In this document: one piece after another, positions 5,085 to 21,496 of the stretch
Layout of the letters: the number at the start of each line of letters is the position of its first letter
Numbering within the stretch: position 1 is the first letter of the stretch
DNA from: an uncultured Pseudanabaenaceae cyanobacterium
GTDB lineage: Bacteria > Cyanobacteriota > Cyanobacteriia > PCC-9006 > JAAUQQ01
Length of the DNA: 22,195 nt
Direction: 5' to 3'
NCBI GenBank assembly: GCA_938015405.1
Contig: CALLPZ010000256.1
Location: 1 to 22,195, forward strand
The notes under the pieces: model-generated
What the model was told of the DNA's origin: nothing
The model's input: the letters and a program-made list of their open reading frames with translations, nothing else
Database searches by the model: none
Made by a program: the position numbers and the translations under genes

Positions 5085-5348
5085 CTAGTCCTTCGCGACA
5101 GTGAAAATCTGGCGAATCTTTTGCACATTATCCTGGAGCTGTCGGTTAATGTGCTCCTTCAAGGCCTTAACTCGGCCCCCTGCGAAGGTATCAAAACCAG
5201 GAATCTTTTCCGCAAACAGAAATAACAGCGCGAGCAGAACGACAGCAAGCTTAGGCACAACGAACAGCAACGCCGCGATCGCCCACCACTCTAGACCAAA
5301 CGCTTCCAGGCCCAATCCTTCTAAACCAATTCCTTCGAAAATAGACAA
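5085..5348 (-). CDS. divergent TatB/TatA-like small membrane protein
   Basis: 87 aa. Hydrophobic helix (WWAIAALLFVVPKLAVVLLALLFLF) followed by an amphipathic segment AEKIPGFDTFAGGRVKALKEHINRQLQDN. This aligns by eye with the TatB hinge and amphipathic helix ([23 protein letters not shown]). Lies directly downstream of the canonical tatA on the same strand. Confidence 0.4.
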   Translation of the reverse strand: MSIFEGIGLEGLGLEAFGLEWWAIAALLFVVPKLAVVLLALLFLFAEKIPGFDTFAGGRVKALKEHINRQLQDNVQKIRQIFTVAKD

Positions 5349-5733: not shown

Positions 5734-6025
5734 GCGATAACTCCTAACCCCTGGGGATTGTTCAGTAGTCCAACCGGACCATACGCCTGTAGCTTCTAGA
5801 GATGTATTCAGCAACACACTTAAGACACAGCCGCTTTTCCATCTTAGCGGTTCGGGGCTTGGCTTTAGTAGCCTCTTGCACAGCAGCTGTCATCGGATTG
5901 AATTAAGCGAAAAACCAGGATTCTCGCGAAATCAAGAGCCCCAAGCTCTCAGGAAACTCACCCGAATGCAGGCACTCTGCTGACTCATTCAAGATGAGTC
6001 ACCCCTTGATGTAGACCGAAAGGAC

Positions 6026-7530: not shown

Positions 7531-8403
7531 CTAATCCTTTTCCGCTTCTAGAGCAGCTTTGGCTTCCTGAAGTCTCTGCTTGTGCTCATCACTAACTTCG
7601 GGGTACTGGAGCTTGAGCGCCTTGAGGCGATCGCTAATAATCTCTGCAACGGTCCAGCGCATAAACTTCTTATCGTCCGCTGGAATCACATACCAAGGAG
7701 CAGCCTCGGTGCTGGTATTGCTCAACATGTCCTCATAGGCCTTTTGGTAGTCATCCCACAGGGCACGCTCCTTAAGGTCAGAATGGGAGAATTTCCAGTT
7801 TTTCTCGGGCCGATTGATGCGGTCTAAAAAGCGCTTCTTCTGCTCAGCTTTGGAGACGTTCAAGAAAAACTTGATCACCATGACGCCATTATTCGTCAGA
7901 TACTCCTCAAAGTTGTTGATTTCCTGGAACCGCTGCTTCCAAATCCCCTTGCCAGTTTTGAGTGCCTCCGGCAGCTGCTGCCCAGCCAAAAACTCGGGGT
8001 GGACTCGCACCACCAAGACCTCCTCGTAATAGGAGCGATTAAAGATGCCGATCCGCCCCCGCTCGGGCAGAGCTTTCATATTACGCCAGAGGTAAGTGTG
8101 GTCACGTTCCTCGGCAGAGGGAGACTTGAAACTAAACACCTGACAGCCCTGGGGGTTCACCCCAGACATCACATGTTTGATTGTGCTGTCCTTGCCCGCC
8201 GCATCCATCGCCTGGAAAACCAGCAAAACGGAATGGGTATTGGAGGCATAGAGGACATCCTGATACTTGGCTAATCGCTCCACACCTACTTTGAGCGCAG
8301 CCTTGGCTTCCGCCTTATCCTTAAACTTGCCGCTTTCTTGGGTCTTATGTTTTTTGAGGGAAACTTTGCTACCGGGCTTGATTAGAAAGGGAGAGGAAGC
8401 CAT
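7531..8403 (-). CDS. PPK2-family polyphosphate:nucleotide phosphotransferase
   Basis: 290 aa. Walker A-like MDAAGKDSTIKHV, Walker B/lid regions (IFNRSYYEEVLVVRVHP) and characteristic PPK2 C-terminal segments (WYVIPADDKKFMRW). Confidence 0.88.
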   Translation of the reverse strand: MASSPFLIKPGSKVSLKKHKTQESGKFKDKAEAKAALKVGVERLAKYQDVLYASNTHSVLLVFQAMDAAGKDSTIKHVMSGVNPQGCQVFSFKSPSAEERDHTYLWRNMKALPERGRIGIFNRSYYEEVLVVRVHPEFLAGQQLPEALKTGKGIWKQRFQEINNFEEYLTNNGVMVIKFFLNVSKAEQKKRFLDRINRPEKNWKFSHSDLKERALWDDYQKAYEDMLSNTSTEAAPWYVIPADDKKFMRWTVAEIISDRLKALKLQYPEVSDEHKQRLQEAKAALEAEKD

Positions 8404-14276: not shown

Positions 14277-15458
14277 ATGGGCTACCAACAGGTCCCTTTT
14301 AAGACTGAAAAACCCGTCCTTTCTTGGGCGAACCATGCTCTGAGTTCTGCTGAGATCACAATGGCCCAGAATGTCGCCTCGCTGCCATTTGTGTTTAAGC
14401 ATGTCTCCCTCATGCCGGATGTGCATTTGGGGAAAGGCGCATTGGTCGGGTCTGTCGTCGCGACGAAGGATGCGATCGTTCCCGCTGCTGTAGGTGTGGA
14501 TATTGGCTGCGGCATGTGCGCCATCAAGCTTCCCTTCCAGGCCAGTCAATTGGAGGGCAAACTCAAAAACATTCGCAAGGATATTGAGGCTGCGATTCCG
14601 ACAGGCTTCAATGAGAATAAGGACGTGGAAAAGTCCGTTCAGAACTGGTCCGGATGGAAGAGCTTTAAAGAGCTCCATCGGGGAGTCCAGGATCGACATA
14701 CCAAAGCGGAGCGGCAGTTAGGAAGCCTTGGCGGTGGCAACCACTTTATTGAGGTTTGCCTAGATGAGGCAGATCAAGTGTGGCTGATGCTCCACTCCGG
14801 CTCGCGCAACATAGGCAATAAGCTGGCCCAGTGCCACATGAGCACTGCCAAGAACTTGGCAAAGCTCTCCGAGGAGAAGCTGCCGGATCTGGATCTGGCC
14901 TACTTCGTCAAAGGTACAGCAGAGTTCGAAGCCTATTGGCGCGATCTGCAATGGGCTCAAGCCTATGCTCTATTCAACCGTGATGTGATGATGGCGCGTT
15001 TCAAACGCATTGTTGAGCAGCATTTAGCCGGAGGAAAGCCAACGAAGCCGATCCTCTCGGTCAATTGCCATCACAACTACGCAGAGAAGGAAATCCACTT
15101 CAACGAAGAGGTGTACGTCACTCGTAAGGGAGCCGTGCGCGCTCGCGAAACGGATTACGGCATCATTCCAGGCTCCATGGGGGCAAAATCCTTCATTGTG
15201 AAGGGCAAGGGCGATCATGCGAGCTTCTGCTCCTGTAGCCACGGAGCTGGAAGATTAATGTCCCGTTCCAAGGCGAAGCGCACCTATTCGCTGGATGATT
15301 TGATCCAGCAGACAGAAGGAATTGAGTGCCGTAAGGATAAGGGGGTATTGGATGAAATTCCTGCGGCTTATAAGCCGATTGAACAAGTGATGGAGAATCA
15401 GAATGACTTGGTGGAGGTGGTGGCAACCCTGCGGCAGGTCGTTTGTGTGAAAGGCTGA
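14277..15458 (+). CDS. rtcB: RNA-splicing ligase RtcB (3'-phosphate/5'-hydroxyl RNA ligase)
   Basis: 393 aa, near-collinear with E. coli RtcB as I recall it: LPFVFKHVSLMPDVHLGKGALVGSVVATKDAIVPAAVGVDIGCGM, GGGNHFIEVCLDE, NCHHNY, SCSHGAGR, and C-terminal LVEVVATLRQVVCVKG. Confidence 0.95.
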   Translation: MGYQQVPFKTEKPVLSWANHALSSAEITMAQNVASLPFVFKHVSLMPDVHLGKGALVGSVVATKDAIVPAAVGVDIGCGMCAIKLPFQASQLEGKLKNIRKDIEAAIPTGFNENKDVEKSVQNWSGWKSFKELHRGVQDRHTKAERQLGSLGGGNHFIEVCLDEADQVWLMLHSGSRNIGNKLAQCHMSTAKNLAKLSEEKLPDLDLAYFVKGTAEFEAYWRDLQWAQAYALFNRDVMMARFKRIVEQHLAGGKPTKPILSVNCHHNYAEKEIHFNEEVYVTRKGAVRARETDYGIIPGSMGAKSFIVKGKGDHASFCSCSHGAGRLMSRSKAKRTYSLDDLIQQTEGIECRKDKGVLDEIPAAYKPIEQVMENQNDLVEVVATLRQVVCVKG

Positions 15459-19063: not shown

Positions 19064-19194
19064 GGCGTTATCTTGAAGTTGGATCGTAAGGTTGCTGCGC
19101 GGCAGCGGCTCAGGTTCTGTATACCTGTCTGGCACGCCAAGCTTTGCTTCGGCGCGTACCGCCAACCACAATTCAAGCGAACCACCAAAACACC

Positions 19195-19279
19195 GCACGA
19201 TTAGCTTAGTGGCCTAAAGCATCCGTCCGACTGTTGTCGTGACGGAGGATCGTAGGTTCGACTCCTACATCGCGCTCCA
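19195..19279 (+). tRNA. tRNA-like gene with non-canonical anticodon arm (no 7-nt anticodon loop); possible tRNA mimic or pseudogene
   Basis: Manual cloverleaf: acceptor GCACGAT/ATCGCGC (one A-C mismatch), U8A9, D-arm GCTT-AGTGGCCTA-AAGC, 5-nt variable loop GGATC, T-arm GTAGG-TTCGACT-CCTAC, discriminator T, encoded CCA. The anticodon position is occupied by a 25-nt hairpin TCCGTC-CGAC-tgtt-GTCG-t-GACGGA, which is 10 bp plus one bulge and a tetraloop. Confidence 0.4.
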
Positions 19280-19281
19280 AC

Positions 19282-19356
19282 TGAAAGTTAGCTCACTGGT
19301 AGAGCATCAGACTCATAATCTGCTTGTAACAGGTTCGATTCCTGTACTTTTCACCA
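19282..19356 (+). tRNA. tRNA-Met or tRNA-Ile2 (anticodon CAU)
   Basis: Manual fold: U8A9, D-arm GCTC-ACTGGTA-GAGC, anticodon arm TCAGA-CTCATAA-TCTGC (U33, CAU, A37), 5-nt variable loop, T-arm ACAGG-TTCGATT-CCTGT, discriminator A, encoded CCA. The acceptor stem is AU-rich with a mismatched 1:72 (T-C) and one GU pair. Starts 2 nt after the CCA of the preceding tRNA-like gene. Confidence 0.6.
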
Positions 19357-19368
19357 CCCCGCCCTGGG

Positions 19369-19498
19369 TATGGGCAACTGATTTGGGATCAGTCAACGCC
19401 TTTTAAGCGTTAAACGCCTTCCACGCGTTCCGAGGCGAAAGCCTCGACCTTTGGTAAAGCGGAGTAATCCGCTGTGGTTCGAATCCACATCTTTTAAG
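19369..19498 (+). ncRNA. structured tRNA-related RNA element (tRNA-Lys-like anticodon hairpin + two GNRA hairpins + T-arm), not a canonical tRNA
   Basis: D-arm-like CTGA-TTTGGGA-TCAG (19378-19392). Hairpin AACGC-CTTTTAA-GCGTT (19395-19411) has the anticodon-loop form of tRNA-Lys(UUU). GNRA-capped hairpins GAGGC-GAAA-GCCTC (19431-19444) and GCGGA-GTAA-TCCGC (19459-19472). T-arm TGTGG-TTCGAAT-CCACA (19473-19489). No complementary acceptor strands. 8-nt direct repeat CTTTTAAG at 19400-19407 and 19491-19498. Confidence 0.25.
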
Positions 19499-19851
19499 AC
19501 CCCACAATACTCAGTTCAGTGGCATAGGCAAGATGAACCTGCTTCGGCGGGAATATCAAACCTGTACCGCAGCAGTTGAGGGCTTGCGCGATCGCGACGC
19601 GAGCTTCCAAAAGAATTGCCCTCTCTTCTAGCTTGAGTCTGTTCTTCTAATATTCCATCTTGCTGCCTTGCGAGGCAGTGGGAACGAGTCCCAAGAACGA
19701 CAGATTTGTTTGATGAATTTGCCAAGCTGTCCTACGGGTCATGGAGGCAGAAGCATTCAGGCTTAATCCAGCTAGGGAGAAGCGATTTCGACAGAAGCTT
19801 GCTTTGCGATCGCCCGCCCAACCCTGTGAACAAGAGCCATTGTGGGGTCTT
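19496..19851. repeat. 13-bp perfect inverted repeats (AAGACCCCACAAT / ATTGTGGGGTCTT) flanking a 330-bp ORF-free segment; MITE-like or recombination-site-like
   Basis: Left arm at 19496-19508, right arm at 19839-19851 followed by TTTTT. The interior has no credible ORF, carries two HIP1 sites and a CTGCCT-TGCG-AGGCAG hairpin (19664-19679). Confidence 0.4.
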
Positions 19852-19975
19852 TTTGATTTCATGTAGCGTGCATACTACATTTTGTGCTACATTCAATTCA
19901 GTGATGAGTCTCCAAGCGTGCTGAGAAATCCAGCGTTGCATCGCTGTCGCTCTCCAGAGGAGAGGAGAAGAAATA

Positions 19976-21496
19976 ATGTTCAGAACCTTTTACATCAAAC
20001 CCAGCGAGCGGGGCATTCTTTACCACCGCAGCGATTTTAAGCGCGTCCTGCGTCCCGGCACCCACCGTTTCTTAGGCTGGCATTGGCAGGTCAAGAAGTT
20101 CGATCTCAACCAGCCCAAAGCTAAGCTGGACAATCCTGAGCTACTTCTGCAAAACCACAATGTCCAGATCCGCCAGCATTTCCATGTGGTGCGAACCGGC
20201 TTTAACGAGGCCGCACTGGTGCGAACCGGACAGCGCTGGCTGCTGGTCAGTCCAGACCAATTGCTGCTGTTTTGGCGAGGCTTTGTAGAGGTCGAAGTCT
20301 TTCAGTTCAACCTGGAGGAAAGCCGTGAGTTGCCTCAAAAATTGGCTCAGCAACCGCATGGAAACTTTACTGGCCTCAAGCAGGTTAGCATCGCCGAGTT
20401 TGAGATTGGTCTGCTCTATGTGGATGACAACTTTGTTCGCCCCCTAGAGCCTGGCGACTACGGGTTTTGGACCTACCGTCGCAAGGTGGAGGTGCGCAGC
20501 CTAAACCGCACCCAGCCCAATCCTGTCTTCCCTTTTGAGGATGTGCTGATTGCTCAGCATCCCCAGTTTGTGGCGGACTACTGCACGGCAGTGGAGCTGG
20601 GGGCAGATGAGGTGGCCATTGTGCGGTACAAGGGAAAGGCGATCGCGGTCCTGCCGCCCCACAGCCGCAAGCTGTTTTGGCAAGATGCTGCAGTAGAAAC
20701 CATCAACGTTCAAGCTGAGCCTAAGCTGCCCCAGCGCCTAGTGTCTGAGTTTGTCTCAGGCTCATCCACCGCCATGGCCCTAGCCCTGGACCACATCCAC
20801 GCCCTAGAGGTGTCTGCACAACATGTAGGCCTGCTTTACCTAGATGGCGCTTTGCAAGAGACGCTATCGGCGGGCATTCATGTCTGGTGGGAGTTTGGTC
20901 GCAGCTTTAAGAGCGAAGCGATCGATCTGCGATTGCAAAGCCTAGAGGTTTCGGGTCAGGAGATCTTGTCTAAGGACAAGGTGCCCCTGCGCTTGAACCT
21001 AACGGCGGATTACCGTGTGGTGGATGCGGTACAGGCCCGGACAGCGCTGAAGGATATTGCAGGTTTCCTGTACAAGGAACTGCAATTTGCCCTGCGCGGT
21101 GCAGTGGGGACGAAGAACCTAGATGCTTTGCTGGAGGATAAGGGAGCGATCGACCAGGCCATTTCTGAGTACATGGCGGAGAAGGTTCCGGCCTACGGTT
21201 TGGAGCTACGTTCTGTCGGCGTCAAAGACATTATCTTGCCCGGTGAAATCAAGGCGATTTTGGGTCAAGTGGTAGCGGCAGAGAAATCGGCCCAGGCCAA
21301 TGTGATCCGCCGCCGCGAGGAAACTGCTGCCACGCGCAGTATGCTCAACACTGCCAAGGTGATGGAGGACAATCCCATTGCGCTGCGGCTGAAGGAGCTG
21401 GAGGTGCTGGAGCGCATCGCGGAGAAGATCGAGCAGATTAATGTAAATGGCAGCTTGGACAGTATCTTGACTGAGTTGATTAGCATTAAGCAGTAG
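19976..21496 (+). CDS. SPFH (band-7/stomatin/HflK-C-like) domain protein with reiterated N-terminal SPFH-type segments
   Basis: 506 aa. The C-terminal 200 aa form a clear SPFH domain and coiled coil (LRLNLTADYRVVDAVQARTALKDIAGFLYKELQFALRGAVG...ILPGEIKAILGQVVAAEKSAQANVIRRREETAA...LKELEVLERIAEKIE). The N-terminal 300 aa contain three further copies of the SPFH opening beta-segment pattern (IKPSERGILYHRSDFKRVLRPGTHRF; VSIAEFEIGLLYVDDNFVRPLEPGDYGF; VAIVRYKGKAIAVLPPHSRKLFW). No N-terminal TM helix. Confidence 0.8.
   Translation: MFRTFYIKPSERGILYHRSDFKRVLRPGTHRFLGWHWQVKKFDLNQPKAKLDNPELLLQNHNVQIRQHFHVVRTGFNEAALVRTGQRWLLVSPDQLLLFWRGFVEVEVFQFNLEESRELPQKLAQQPHGNFTGLKQVSIAEFEIGLLYVDDNFVRPLEPGDYGFWTYRRKVEVRSLNRTQPNPVFPFEDVLIAQHPQFVADYCTAVELGADEVAIVRYKGKAIAVLPPHSRKLFWQDAAVETINVQAEPKLPQRLVSEFVSGSSTAMALALDHIHALEVSAQHVGLLYLDGALQETLSAGIHVWWEFGRSFKSEAIDLRLQSLEVSGQEILSKDKVPLRLNLTADYRVVDAVQARTALKDIAGFLYKELQFALRGAVGTKNLDALLEDKGAIDQAISEYMAEKVPAYGLELRSVGVKDIILPGEIKAILGQVVAAEKSAQANVIRRREETAATRSMLNTAKVMEDNPIALRLKELEVLERIAEKIEQINVNGSLDSILTELISIKQ

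Follow-up and report, generated by a model that had tools for sequence, protein, structure and literature searches.

The element at positions 19195–19279 of the 22,195-nucleotide stretch analysed here (contig CALLPZ010000256.1 from an uncultured Pseudanabaenaceae cyanobacterium, referred to as the window) is a tRNA-shaped, non-decoding module that is kept by selection. It is followed on the same strand by a second, tRNA(CAU)-shaped element; the two are termed module 1 and module 2. Our preferred explanation, in which we have moderate confidence, is that module 1 is a non-decoding tRNA mimic, the first of the tandem tRNA-derived modules heading a conserved structured noncoding RNA, and that it probably serves as a processing or recognition handle. 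Both modules sit in a conserved noncoding unit of ∼775 nt (window ∼19081–19855) that measures 554 nt in Nostoc sp. PCC 7120. The pair of modules noticed in a preliminary description of this DNA is only part of this larger unit, which has its own predicted promoter and terminator (Table 1).

A cloverleaf without an anticodon loop

Read directly from the sequence, the acceptor strands of module 1 are GCACGAU and AUCGCGC, the first of which is followed by U8–A9, a D-arm GCUU-AGUGGCCUA-AAGC and A26. The 3′ half consists of a GGAUC variable loop, a T-arm GUAGG-UUCGACU-CCUAC and a U discriminator, followed by CCA. Module 1 thus has the three cloverleaf stems (acceptor, D and T), G18G19 and a UUCRA T-loop, and it lacks the 5 bp anticodon stem and the 7 nt loop (U33, purine 37) that characterize a decoding tRNA. 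In the position of the anticodon arm there are 25 nt, UCCGUC-CGAC-UGUU-GUCG-U-GACGGA, for which RNAfold gives the structure ((((((((((....)))).)))))) at −15.2 kcal/mol; this reproduces the hairpin of 6 bp, a bulge, 4 bp and a UGUU tetraloop that had been proposed earlier. The remainder of the earlier cloverleaf parse (U8, GG in the D-arm, a 5 nt variable loop, UUCGA, a discriminator and CCA) also stands, with the exception of the 7 bp acceptor stem, which has six Watson–Crick pairs and an A3·C70 mismatch rather than seven pairs. This pair (window 19197 and 19273) is A·C in the window, C·A in two related loci (L024 and L028), G·U in a third (L009) and Watson–Crick in others.

ARAGORN reports 19195–19279 (+) as ‘tRNA-???’. 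The Rfam tRNA model RF00005 matches module 1 with 48.2 bits (E 1.1e-7; gathering score 29), and its alignment places 14 nt at six loop positions of the model. The preliminary description would have been undone by a covariance model that folds the segment as an ordinary tRNA; RF00005 has to skip the 14 nt insertion and gives no normal anticodon loop.

Module 1 in related genomes

Relatives were reached by synteny, homologues of the slipin encoded downstream of the unit being traced to their contigs; one locus, L009, came from a metagenome scan with a module 2 pattern. An nhmmer profile of the intergenic region recovers the whole block of ∼0.55–0.8 kb in 12 genomes (E 1e-285 to 1.5e-35), among them Nostoc sp. 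PCC 7120 (BA000019.2), Leptolyngbya sp. NIES-3755 (AP017308.1) and Altericista sp. CCNU0014 (CP137338.1). Contigs with an identical CcbP protein, the product of a gene flanking the unit, represent the same strain or near-identical strains. The L009 contig ends before any downstream gene and the L006 contig begins inside module 1.

Across ten orthologues, 96.3% of the cells in the acceptor, D and T stems of module 1 are paired, and double (compensatory) changes occur in 10 of the 16 stem pairs. The covariation score was reached by none of 500 shuffles, and slid registers are only 30–48% paired. The accumulation of uncompensated stem mismatches expected of a pseudogene was not found in the lineages that keep the module; Nostoc and L033 show its loss.

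The arm that replaces the anticodon arm behaves differently. It is the fastest-evolving segment, with 42% identity (10/24) to that of L007 versus 85–95% for the rest of modules 1 and 2, and over ∼235 nt the window differs from sister strains at just two positions, both of them in the arm and both preserving pairing (C–G to U–G and U–A to U–G). Its length in the orthologues is 12, 16, 16, 16, 17, 17, 17, 24 or 25 nt, with loops of 4, 6, 7 or 8 nt. The 24 nt arm of L007 (slipin 84% identical) is unrelated in sequence (GCUG-C-ACCG-UUCUCAG-CGGU-CAGC; ARAGORN Glu), and the 13 nt fragment left in L006 (slipin 94%; no call), the contig of which starts inside the arm, is like the arm of L007 and not like that of the window. 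L008 has a 12 nt arm, a 4 bp stem with a CUUG tetraloop, which ARAGORN misses and Rfam scores at 63.5 bits. The arms of L025, L027 and L031 are 16 nt long, with loops of 6 nt (L025 and L027) or 8 nt (L031), and are reported as ‘???’. Arms of 17 nt with 7 nt loops are found in L024 (Val), L028 (C37; Leu) and L009 (A33; Ser). In Nostoc 7120 only a 7 bp acceptor-type stem around 35 nt is left of module 1, and in L033 the module is absent; neither gives a call. The ARAGORN identities are thus inconsistent (Glu, Val, Leu, Ser or ‘???’).

Since the stems covary and the arm varies freely, module 1 is selected for its tRNA shape and not for an anticodon. The earlier view of a mimic rather than random decay is borne out, the arm being an arbitrary hairpin of 12–25 nt. 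The other possibility raised at that stage, an 8 nt insertion in the anticodon loop of a normal tRNA, is not supported: the long arm of L007 is unrelated, the L006 remnant resembles the arm of L007 and not that of the window, and more distant relatives have arms of 12–17 nt with 4, 6, 7 or 8 nt loops. An inserted repeat or miniature inverted-repeat transposable element is rejected as the origin of the 25 nt arm, since searches of the window (with up to 3 mismatches allowed), of the fetched loci and of the viral collection gave no second copy. In Leptolyngbya NIES-3755 (L031 5506–5655) the module 1 arm GUCGUCUGAAAUCGAU is nearly the module 2 anticodon arm AUCGACUGAAAAUCGAU minus one base, which points to gene conversion from one module to the other, or to duplication in the recent past.

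The intact top half of module 1, with a discriminator and CC(A) in most lineages, would also suit a chargeable noncanonical tRNA that acts outside decoding, as an aminoacyl donor or a regulatory tRNA, and is recognized by a synthetase that ignores the anticodon. The unusual 3:70 pairs (A·C, C·A and G·U) fit such a role, 3:70 being the pair read by alanyl-tRNA synthetase. Orthologues differ in their acceptor-stem sequence and in the discriminator (U, A or C), so that no one synthetase identity set is retained; several genomes have CCG, CCC or AGG in place of CCA, and two lineages have lost the module. We regard this explanation as very improbable.

Module 2

Conservation within the unit is highest in module 2. 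ARAGORN reports 19282–19356 (+) as tRNA-Met(CAT), and RF00005 matches it with 55.6 bits. In the orthologues, 93.9% of the cells in its cloverleaf are paired and the anticodon stem covaries. The spacer that separates it from module 1 ranges from 0 to 5 nt in the orthologues. The preliminary description had placed a canonical tRNA(CAU) 2 nt after module 1. The spacing is correct, and ‘canonical’ is not: position 1:72 is U·C in the window and unpaired in 9 of 11 orthologues, the acceptor stem of the window is A/U-rich with a G·U pair, and the anticodon changes. CAU is found in seven genomes including the window, GUU in L025 and Nostoc, UGU in Altericista and GAA in Leptolyngbya NIES-3755. The corresponding loop in L033 is UGUAUCG, without U33, and the module receives no tRNA call there from ARAGORN or from Rfam at the gathering score; the acceptor and T-arm strands and the flanks are still present.

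Orthologous decoding tRNAs normally keep their identity, and neither module 1 nor module 2 has the same anticodon and identity throughout its orthologues. Since the anticodon of module 2 switches between orthologues, the module would have to be redundant for decoding, at least when the switch occurs. In Nostoc, module 2 has a C1·U72 mismatch and a C73 discriminator, both of which are atypical of tRNA-Asn identity.

Two pairings of module 2 with other parts of the unit were considered and rejected. Pairing of its anticodon with a ‘codon’ in the UGGGU… loop just downstream fits only 5 of 11 genomes, and GAACGACAGAUUUG, considered as a partner of its anticodon stem, does not covary with that stem in Nostoc or L031 and pairs with GUCUGUUC instead.

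Organization of the enclosing unit

In an 11-genome alignment the unit opens with a conserved −10 box and a 5′ domain, which are followed by modules 1 and 2. Two covarying hairpins come next, then a half-tRNA module that is optional (module 3), and the unit closes with a 3′ domain and a terminator hairpin with a U-run. The features of the window are listed in Table 1.

Table 1. Features of the unit and neighbouring genes in the window
Feature	Positions	Strand	Description	Basis
rtcB gene	14277–15458	+	4 kb upstream of the unit	Pfam, E 1.8e-125
Predicted −10 box	19069–19074	+	TATCTT; predicted transcript start ∼19081–19083	Homology, aligned with TGCTAnnnT of orthologues
5′ domain	19102–19163	+	Closing stem GCGGC/(U)ACCGC; hairpin A CAGG-UUCUGUAU-CCUG with near-invariant loop; variable hairpin B	RNAalifold, 10 genomes
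Module 1	19195–19279	+	tRNA cloverleaf without anticodon loop	Sequence reading, ARAGORN, Rfam, covariation
Module 1 acceptor stem	19195–19201/19269–19275	+		
Module 1 D-arm	19204–19220	+		
Module 1 over-long ‘anticodon arm’	19222–19246	+	6 bp, U bulge, 4 bp, UGUU tetraloop	RNAfold
Module 1 T-arm	19252–19268	+		
Module 1 discriminator	19276	+	U	
Module 1 CCA	19277–19279	+		
Spacer, module 1 to module 2	19280–19281	+	2 nt, AC	Sequence, ARAGORN
Module 2	19282–19356	+	tRNA(CAU)-shaped; complete anticodon arm, U1·C72 mismatch, encoded CCA	ARAGORN, Rfam
Segment and two hairpins after module 2	19356–19393	+	ACCCCGC segment; stem-loop GCCC-UGGGUAU-GGGC; hairpin ACUGAU-UUGGG-AUCAGU	Covariation of both hairpins
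Three lineage-specific hairpins	19395–19446	+	Third with GAAA loop; window/L006/L007 clade only in the alignment, different inserts in L009	
Module 3	19459–19489	+	GNRA hairpin GCGGA-GUAA-UCCGC; T-arm-like GUGG-UUCGAAU-CCAC; U-rich run	Compensatory changes
3′ core domain	19496–19839	+	Long-range helices	RNAalifold, per-helix strands
3′ helix	19570/19824	+	CAGCAG/CUGUG	
3′ helix			GGGC/GCCC	
3′ helix	19588/19806	+	GCGAUCGC/GCGAUCGC	
3′ helix	19630/19767	+	AGCUUGA/UCCAGCU	
3′ helix	19637/19695	+	GUCUGUUC/GAACGACAGAU	
3′ hairpin	19726–19744	+	Around CCUACGGG	
Terminator, predicted 3′ end of RNA	19840–19854	+	Hairpin 3′ strand UUGUGGGGU and U-run	GCGGGG(U)CUUUUU conserved in orthologues
Slipin/SPFH (Band-7) gene	19976–21496	+	506 aa; downstream neighbour, not part of the RNA	Pfam PF01145, E 5e-30

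The 5′ domain has 93.5% of its cells paired, with double changes in 14 of 20 pairs; its score was reached by none of 500 shuffles, and slid registers are 31–41% paired. Both hairpins after module 2 covary (GCUU/AAGC and GUCC/GGAC for one, CUCG/CGAG and CUACC/GGUAG for the other). In module 3 the GNRA hairpin changes in a compensatory manner from GCGGA/UCCGC to GGGGA/UCCCC, with loops GUAA, GCAA and GAAA, and the T-stem occurs as GUGG/CCAC, GGGG/CCCC and ACGG/CCGU. This module is absent from L024, Nostoc, L009 and L033.

The 3′ domain contains the invariant blocks CUUGAGU, GAACGACA-AUUUG, CUUAAUCCAG and GCGAUCGCCCGC. One of its helices is GUCUGUU/ACAGAU in the window, GUAUCAG/CUGAUAU in L009 and GUAGAUU/GGUCUAU in L027, and the HIP1-like octamer pair GCGAUCGC becomes GCGGAU/AUUCGC in Nostoc and GCUAAG/CUUAGC in L033. 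In leave-one-out tests, 77–93% of the pairs of this domain are satisfied in register versus ∼35–50% when shifted. L033 was never used in building the structural model of the 3′ domain; it satisfies 51 of 69 pairs in register versus 20–29 of ∼65 shifted, and for the long-range pairs only 34 of 42 versus 12–15 of ∼40.

Three further observations concern these regions. The segment ACCCCGC (19356–19362) right after module 2 is complementary to GUGGGGU (19842–19848) just before the U-run, and in Nostoc the two are ACCCUGU and GCAGAGU, a compensatory change; the pairing competes with the local terminator hairpin (CCCGC…GCGGG). It might close the entire 3′ domain as a helix or act as a terminator/antiterminator switch. 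Module 3 is followed by UCUUUU, and window 19459–19495 was flagged by a terminator scan; a U-rich run follows at the corresponding point in most homologues, L024 included although it has no module 3. Internal termination, pausing, or RNase E/Hfq acting at this site could give a shorter RNA. Two copies of the cyanobacterial HIP1 palindrome GCGATCGC, at 19588–19595 and 19806–19813, keep constant positions within the RNA, and each pairs with the other copy rather than with itself.

A protein-coding interpretation is rejected, as the window and Nostoc units share no open reading frame (ORF). A search of 11 loci against Rfam 15 (E up to 5 for the window, E up to 1 for four homologous loci and the gathering score for six) returned only RF00005, with no match to GOLLD, ROOL, OLE, RNase P RNA or 6S RNA.

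These data bear on the simplest alternative, a relic tRNA array in which module 2 is a working tRNA, modules 1 and 3 are dying duplicates and the flanks are a long pre-tRNA leader and trailer. Degeneration of module 1 in Nostoc and its absence from L033, the half-tRNA form of module 3 and its absence from four genomes, and the 17 nt arms with 7 nt loops in some module 1 orthologues are all as this alternative would have it, as is the standing of the Nostoc module 2 gene, allrt08, among 48 chromosomal tRNA genes that are taken to be expressed and housekeeping (PMC8421152). A neutral relic should nevertheless lose its stems, whereas those of module 1 are 96% paired, with compensation in 10 of 16 pairs, in deeply diverged genomes. 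The covarying long-range helices of the flanks pass held-out tests, which would not be expected of a disposable leader and trailer, and module 2 itself changes its anticodon and loses its loop in L033. We therefore consider a relic array unlikely.

Expression in Nostoc sp. PCC 7120

A transcription unit (TU) mapped in Nostoc PCC 7120, TU00468, extends over 860584–861138 on the forward strand (554 nt), with the primary transcription start site (TSS) gTSS_860584f and allrt08 as its gene (PMC10287535, Data Set S1). The TUs of that study were built from RNA-seq coverage, an earlier differential RNA-seq (dRNA-seq) TSS set and terminator predictions (PMC10287535). The TSS at 860584 lies 7 nt after a TACATT box equivalent to the −10 box of the window, and our sequence-based prediction for Nostoc, a start at 860584–860587 and an end at the terminator at ∼861141, agrees with the mapped TU. 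The Nostoc unit corresponds to L030 4743–5297, and the annotated tRNA allrt08 fills 75 of the 554 nt. Since the ends of TU00468 match those of the conserved block, the block is a single TU in Nostoc. By homology, the unit in the window is predicted to be transcribed from ∼19081 to 19855. The joint precursor of modules 1 and 2 suggested in the preliminary description is thereby supported, by the Nostoc TU and, for the window, by homology.

Genomic context

In the window the unit is flanked by the genes for CcbP and the slipin/Band-7 protein. In 10 of the 12 genomes it lies 0–2.8 kb upstream of the slipin gene on the same strand, and in most it is directly adjacent; one gene intervenes in Nostoc, and in L008 the gap is 2.8 kb and contains two genes on the opposite strand. 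Acaryochloris thomasi, the only examined lineage without the block, has the slipin and no unit within 6 kb. The N-terminal half of the slipin and three neighbouring ORFs have no informative Pfam match.

A conserved motif of the type TGTAG(T/C)A, often doubled or inverted, is present between the terminator and the next gene (window 19861–19893, L030 ∼5297–5330 and L031 ∼5955–5985). It reads ATGTAGCGTGCATACTACATTTTGTGCTACATT in the window and GTGTAGTATGTGTAGTAT in Nostoc and resembles the −10 box of the unit itself, TGCTACATT; it may be a promoter or operator of the slipin operon.

The position of the unit raises the possibility of a cis-regulatory slipin leader, a structured RNA that, with its tRNA-shaped modules, would respond to a cue such as a tRNA-binding protein, processing enzyme or ligand and so control read-through of the terminator into the slipin gene. 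Co-orientation upstream of slipin in 10 of 12 genomes from several cyanobacterial orders, a terminator placed 120–150 nt before the gene and a 3′-terminal GCGGGG that pairs either locally or with the ACCCCGC after module 2, which would allow a switch, are consistent with such a role. No TU is listed for the downstream alr0739–slipin genes of Nostoc under the conditions used (PMC10287535), so that no separate slipin TU was detected there. Against it stand the genes that intervene in L008 and Nostoc, the promoter-like motif between the terminator and slipin, the end of the Nostoc TU at the terminator and the presence of slipin without the unit in A. thomasi. In addition, all loci but one were found through slipin, and the linkage is partly a matter of ascertainment. 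On balance a slipin leader is doubtful. It is compatible with the preferred explanation of a tRNA-mimicking handle, because GCGGGG can pair locally or with ACCCCGC.

The rtcB gene noted in the preliminary description is present at the position given there. The connection drawn with the unit is not upheld, as the gene tables of the homologous loci contain no rtcB near the unit in any relative, and the link is coincidental. No Ro/TROVE domain was found among 10 neighbouring ORFs tested in the window, and a combined link between rtcB, Ro and Y RNA is rejected on the score of the YrlA model (see below), the Pfam matches of the neighbours and the gene tables of relatives. A further ARAGORN ‘tRNA-???’ with a 2-base anticodon, at 7989–8064 (−), is a false positive; it lies within a PPK2 ORF (7531–8403; Pfam E 1.8e-69) and has no Rfam match.

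A scan of species-representative genomes with a D-arm/T-arm pattern, which was too specific, found only an unrelated tRNA-Ser of an insect endosymbiont; the module 2 scan of metagenomes found mostly ordinary tRNA-Met genes, with L009 as the only true homologue; and a viral scan found one unrelated tRNA pair. No homologue of the unit was found in the plasmid and phage collections.

Comparison with known systems

The closest parallels are RNAs in which a tRNA shape is used without decoding. The t-elements of plant mitochondria, like tRNA punctuation, require the acceptor/T-arm half and no anticodon, and define the ends of neighbouring RNAs through RNase P and RNase Z. Module 1 likewise keeps the acceptor/T-arm half, needs no anticodon and lies inside a longer transcript. 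t-elements are organellar and flank mRNAs, whereas the unit belongs to a free-living cyanobacterium and has structured noncoding flanks, and cleavage is here only proposed. In MALAT1 mascRNA and the TMER RNAs of murine gammaherpesvirus-68, a non-aminoacylated tRNA mimic within a noncoding RNA acts as a handle for RNase P and RNase Z. Embedding of a tRNA mimic in a longer noncoding transcript is common to these and to module 1, for which a handle role would follow by analogy; they are eukaryotic or viral, have a single tRNA-like element each and show no sequence relationship to it. What module 1 shares with both types is a retained acceptor/T-arm half and elbow, a dispensable anticodon arm and a place in a longer transcript with conserved structured flanks, the transcript being represented by the Nostoc TU and, for the window, by homology.

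The preliminary description had likened module 1 to the tRNA-like domains of transfer-messenger RNA (tmRNA) and Y RNA, and membership of either family is not supported. tmRNA is also a bacterial RNA that mimics the acceptor/T-arm half without an anticodon; unlike the contiguous cloverleaves described here, its mimic is built from the 5′ and 3′ ends of the RNA, with a tag ORF and pseudoknots. Neither ARAGORN nor Rfam gave a tmRNA call, and there is no conserved ORF. YrlA (RF02553) resembles the unit in having a tRNA-like module with a T-arm, a D-arm and an acceptor-like stem in a larger noncoding RNA. Its model scores only 21.3 bits (E = 2.2) versus a gathering score of 69, with a match that only spans the module 1 T-arm and the module 2 D-arm. 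YrlA loci have an adjacent Ro60 gene and often rtcB/rtcR, whereas there is no Ro60 nearby here and rtcB lies 4 kb away in this genome only.

GOLLD and ROOL are large ornate bacterial RNAs of more than 500 nt, of unknown function and often located next to tRNAs. The unit is likewise a multi-domain structured RNA of more than 500 nt associated with tRNA sequences, but it differs from them in taxonomic range and genomic context as well as in the absence of an Rfam match in the 11 loci. Long tRNA arrays such as the trn operon of Anabaena 7120, which is plasmid-borne and has 26 mostly chargeable tRNAs, three of which are treated as pseudogenes (PMC8421152), are a cyanobacterial precedent for tandem tRNAs in one transcript with some nonfunctional members. 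In contrast, the unit is chromosomal, its 1–3 modules are set among conserved structured domains that are not tRNA, and compensatory changes maintain the module that does not decode.

Proposed function

In the explanation that we prefer, selection retains those parts of module 1 that are recognized by RNase P, by RNase Z and by the CCA-adding enzyme, namely its acceptor stem, T-arm and elbow (D-arm/T-loop), and the anticodon arm need only form some hairpin, hence its free drift in length and sequence. Because the parts kept are those that the processing enzymes read, a handle is the most economical mechanism. If RNase P cut the primary transcript at the 5′ border of every module and the 3′ sides were trimmed, the 5′ and 3′ structured domains would be freed; alternatively, within the same scheme, the modules might tether tRNA-binding proteins to the transcript. 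Cleavage by the tRNA-processing enzymes and roles for the mature RNA pieces are what we infer from these features.

Several points weigh against this explanation. Module 1 is degenerate in Nostoc and absent from L033, and is therefore dispensable and not essential to the unit. A CCA is encoded in only about half of the lineages. A natural-looking 7 nt anticodon loop is present in 11 of the 12 module 2s and would be needless in a pure processing handle, and module 2 of Nostoc may still decode. Finally, only 12 genomes were sampled, all of them through slipin synteny or the module 2 pattern, which biases the apparent linkage and conservation.

The locus may well represent an undescribed family of cyanobacterial RNAs of ∼0.55–0.8 kb, a reading that we hold with middling confidence. 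Such an RNA would exist in its own right and not merely as a tRNA precursor, and would consist of 1–3 tRNA-mimic modules, a 5′ three-helix domain and a 3′ multi-helix domain, with its own promoter and linkage to slipin across several orders. It could serve, for example, as a tRNA-mimicking scaffold or a slipin-tied regulator. No description of this RNA was found in the literature searched, and overlap with an unnamed candidate of a 2026 RNA-structure screen of 202 cyanobacterial genomes is possible; the supplements of Brenes-Alvarez 2016 contain no entry at these coordinates.

Significance

tRNA mimicry inside a longer RNA is of a known kind, and the enclosing RNA, which matches no Rfam family, is apparently undescribed. 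Mimicry of this type in bacterial noncoding RNA is known from few cases (tmRNA and YrlA), and large structured RNAs without a known function, which are rare in bacteria, have repeatedly been a route to new biology. tRNA finders can mislabel such modules, the orthologues here being called Val, Leu, Ser, Glu, Asn, Thr, Phe or Met, and the mislabelled modules affect the tRNA gene counts of cyanobacterial genomes. A conserved and expressed multi-domain RNA is present in the genetically tractable Nostoc PCC 7120, where it is annotated merely as a tRNA, and it opens the questions of what the modules recruit, whether the flanks are released and why the unit stays beside slipin.

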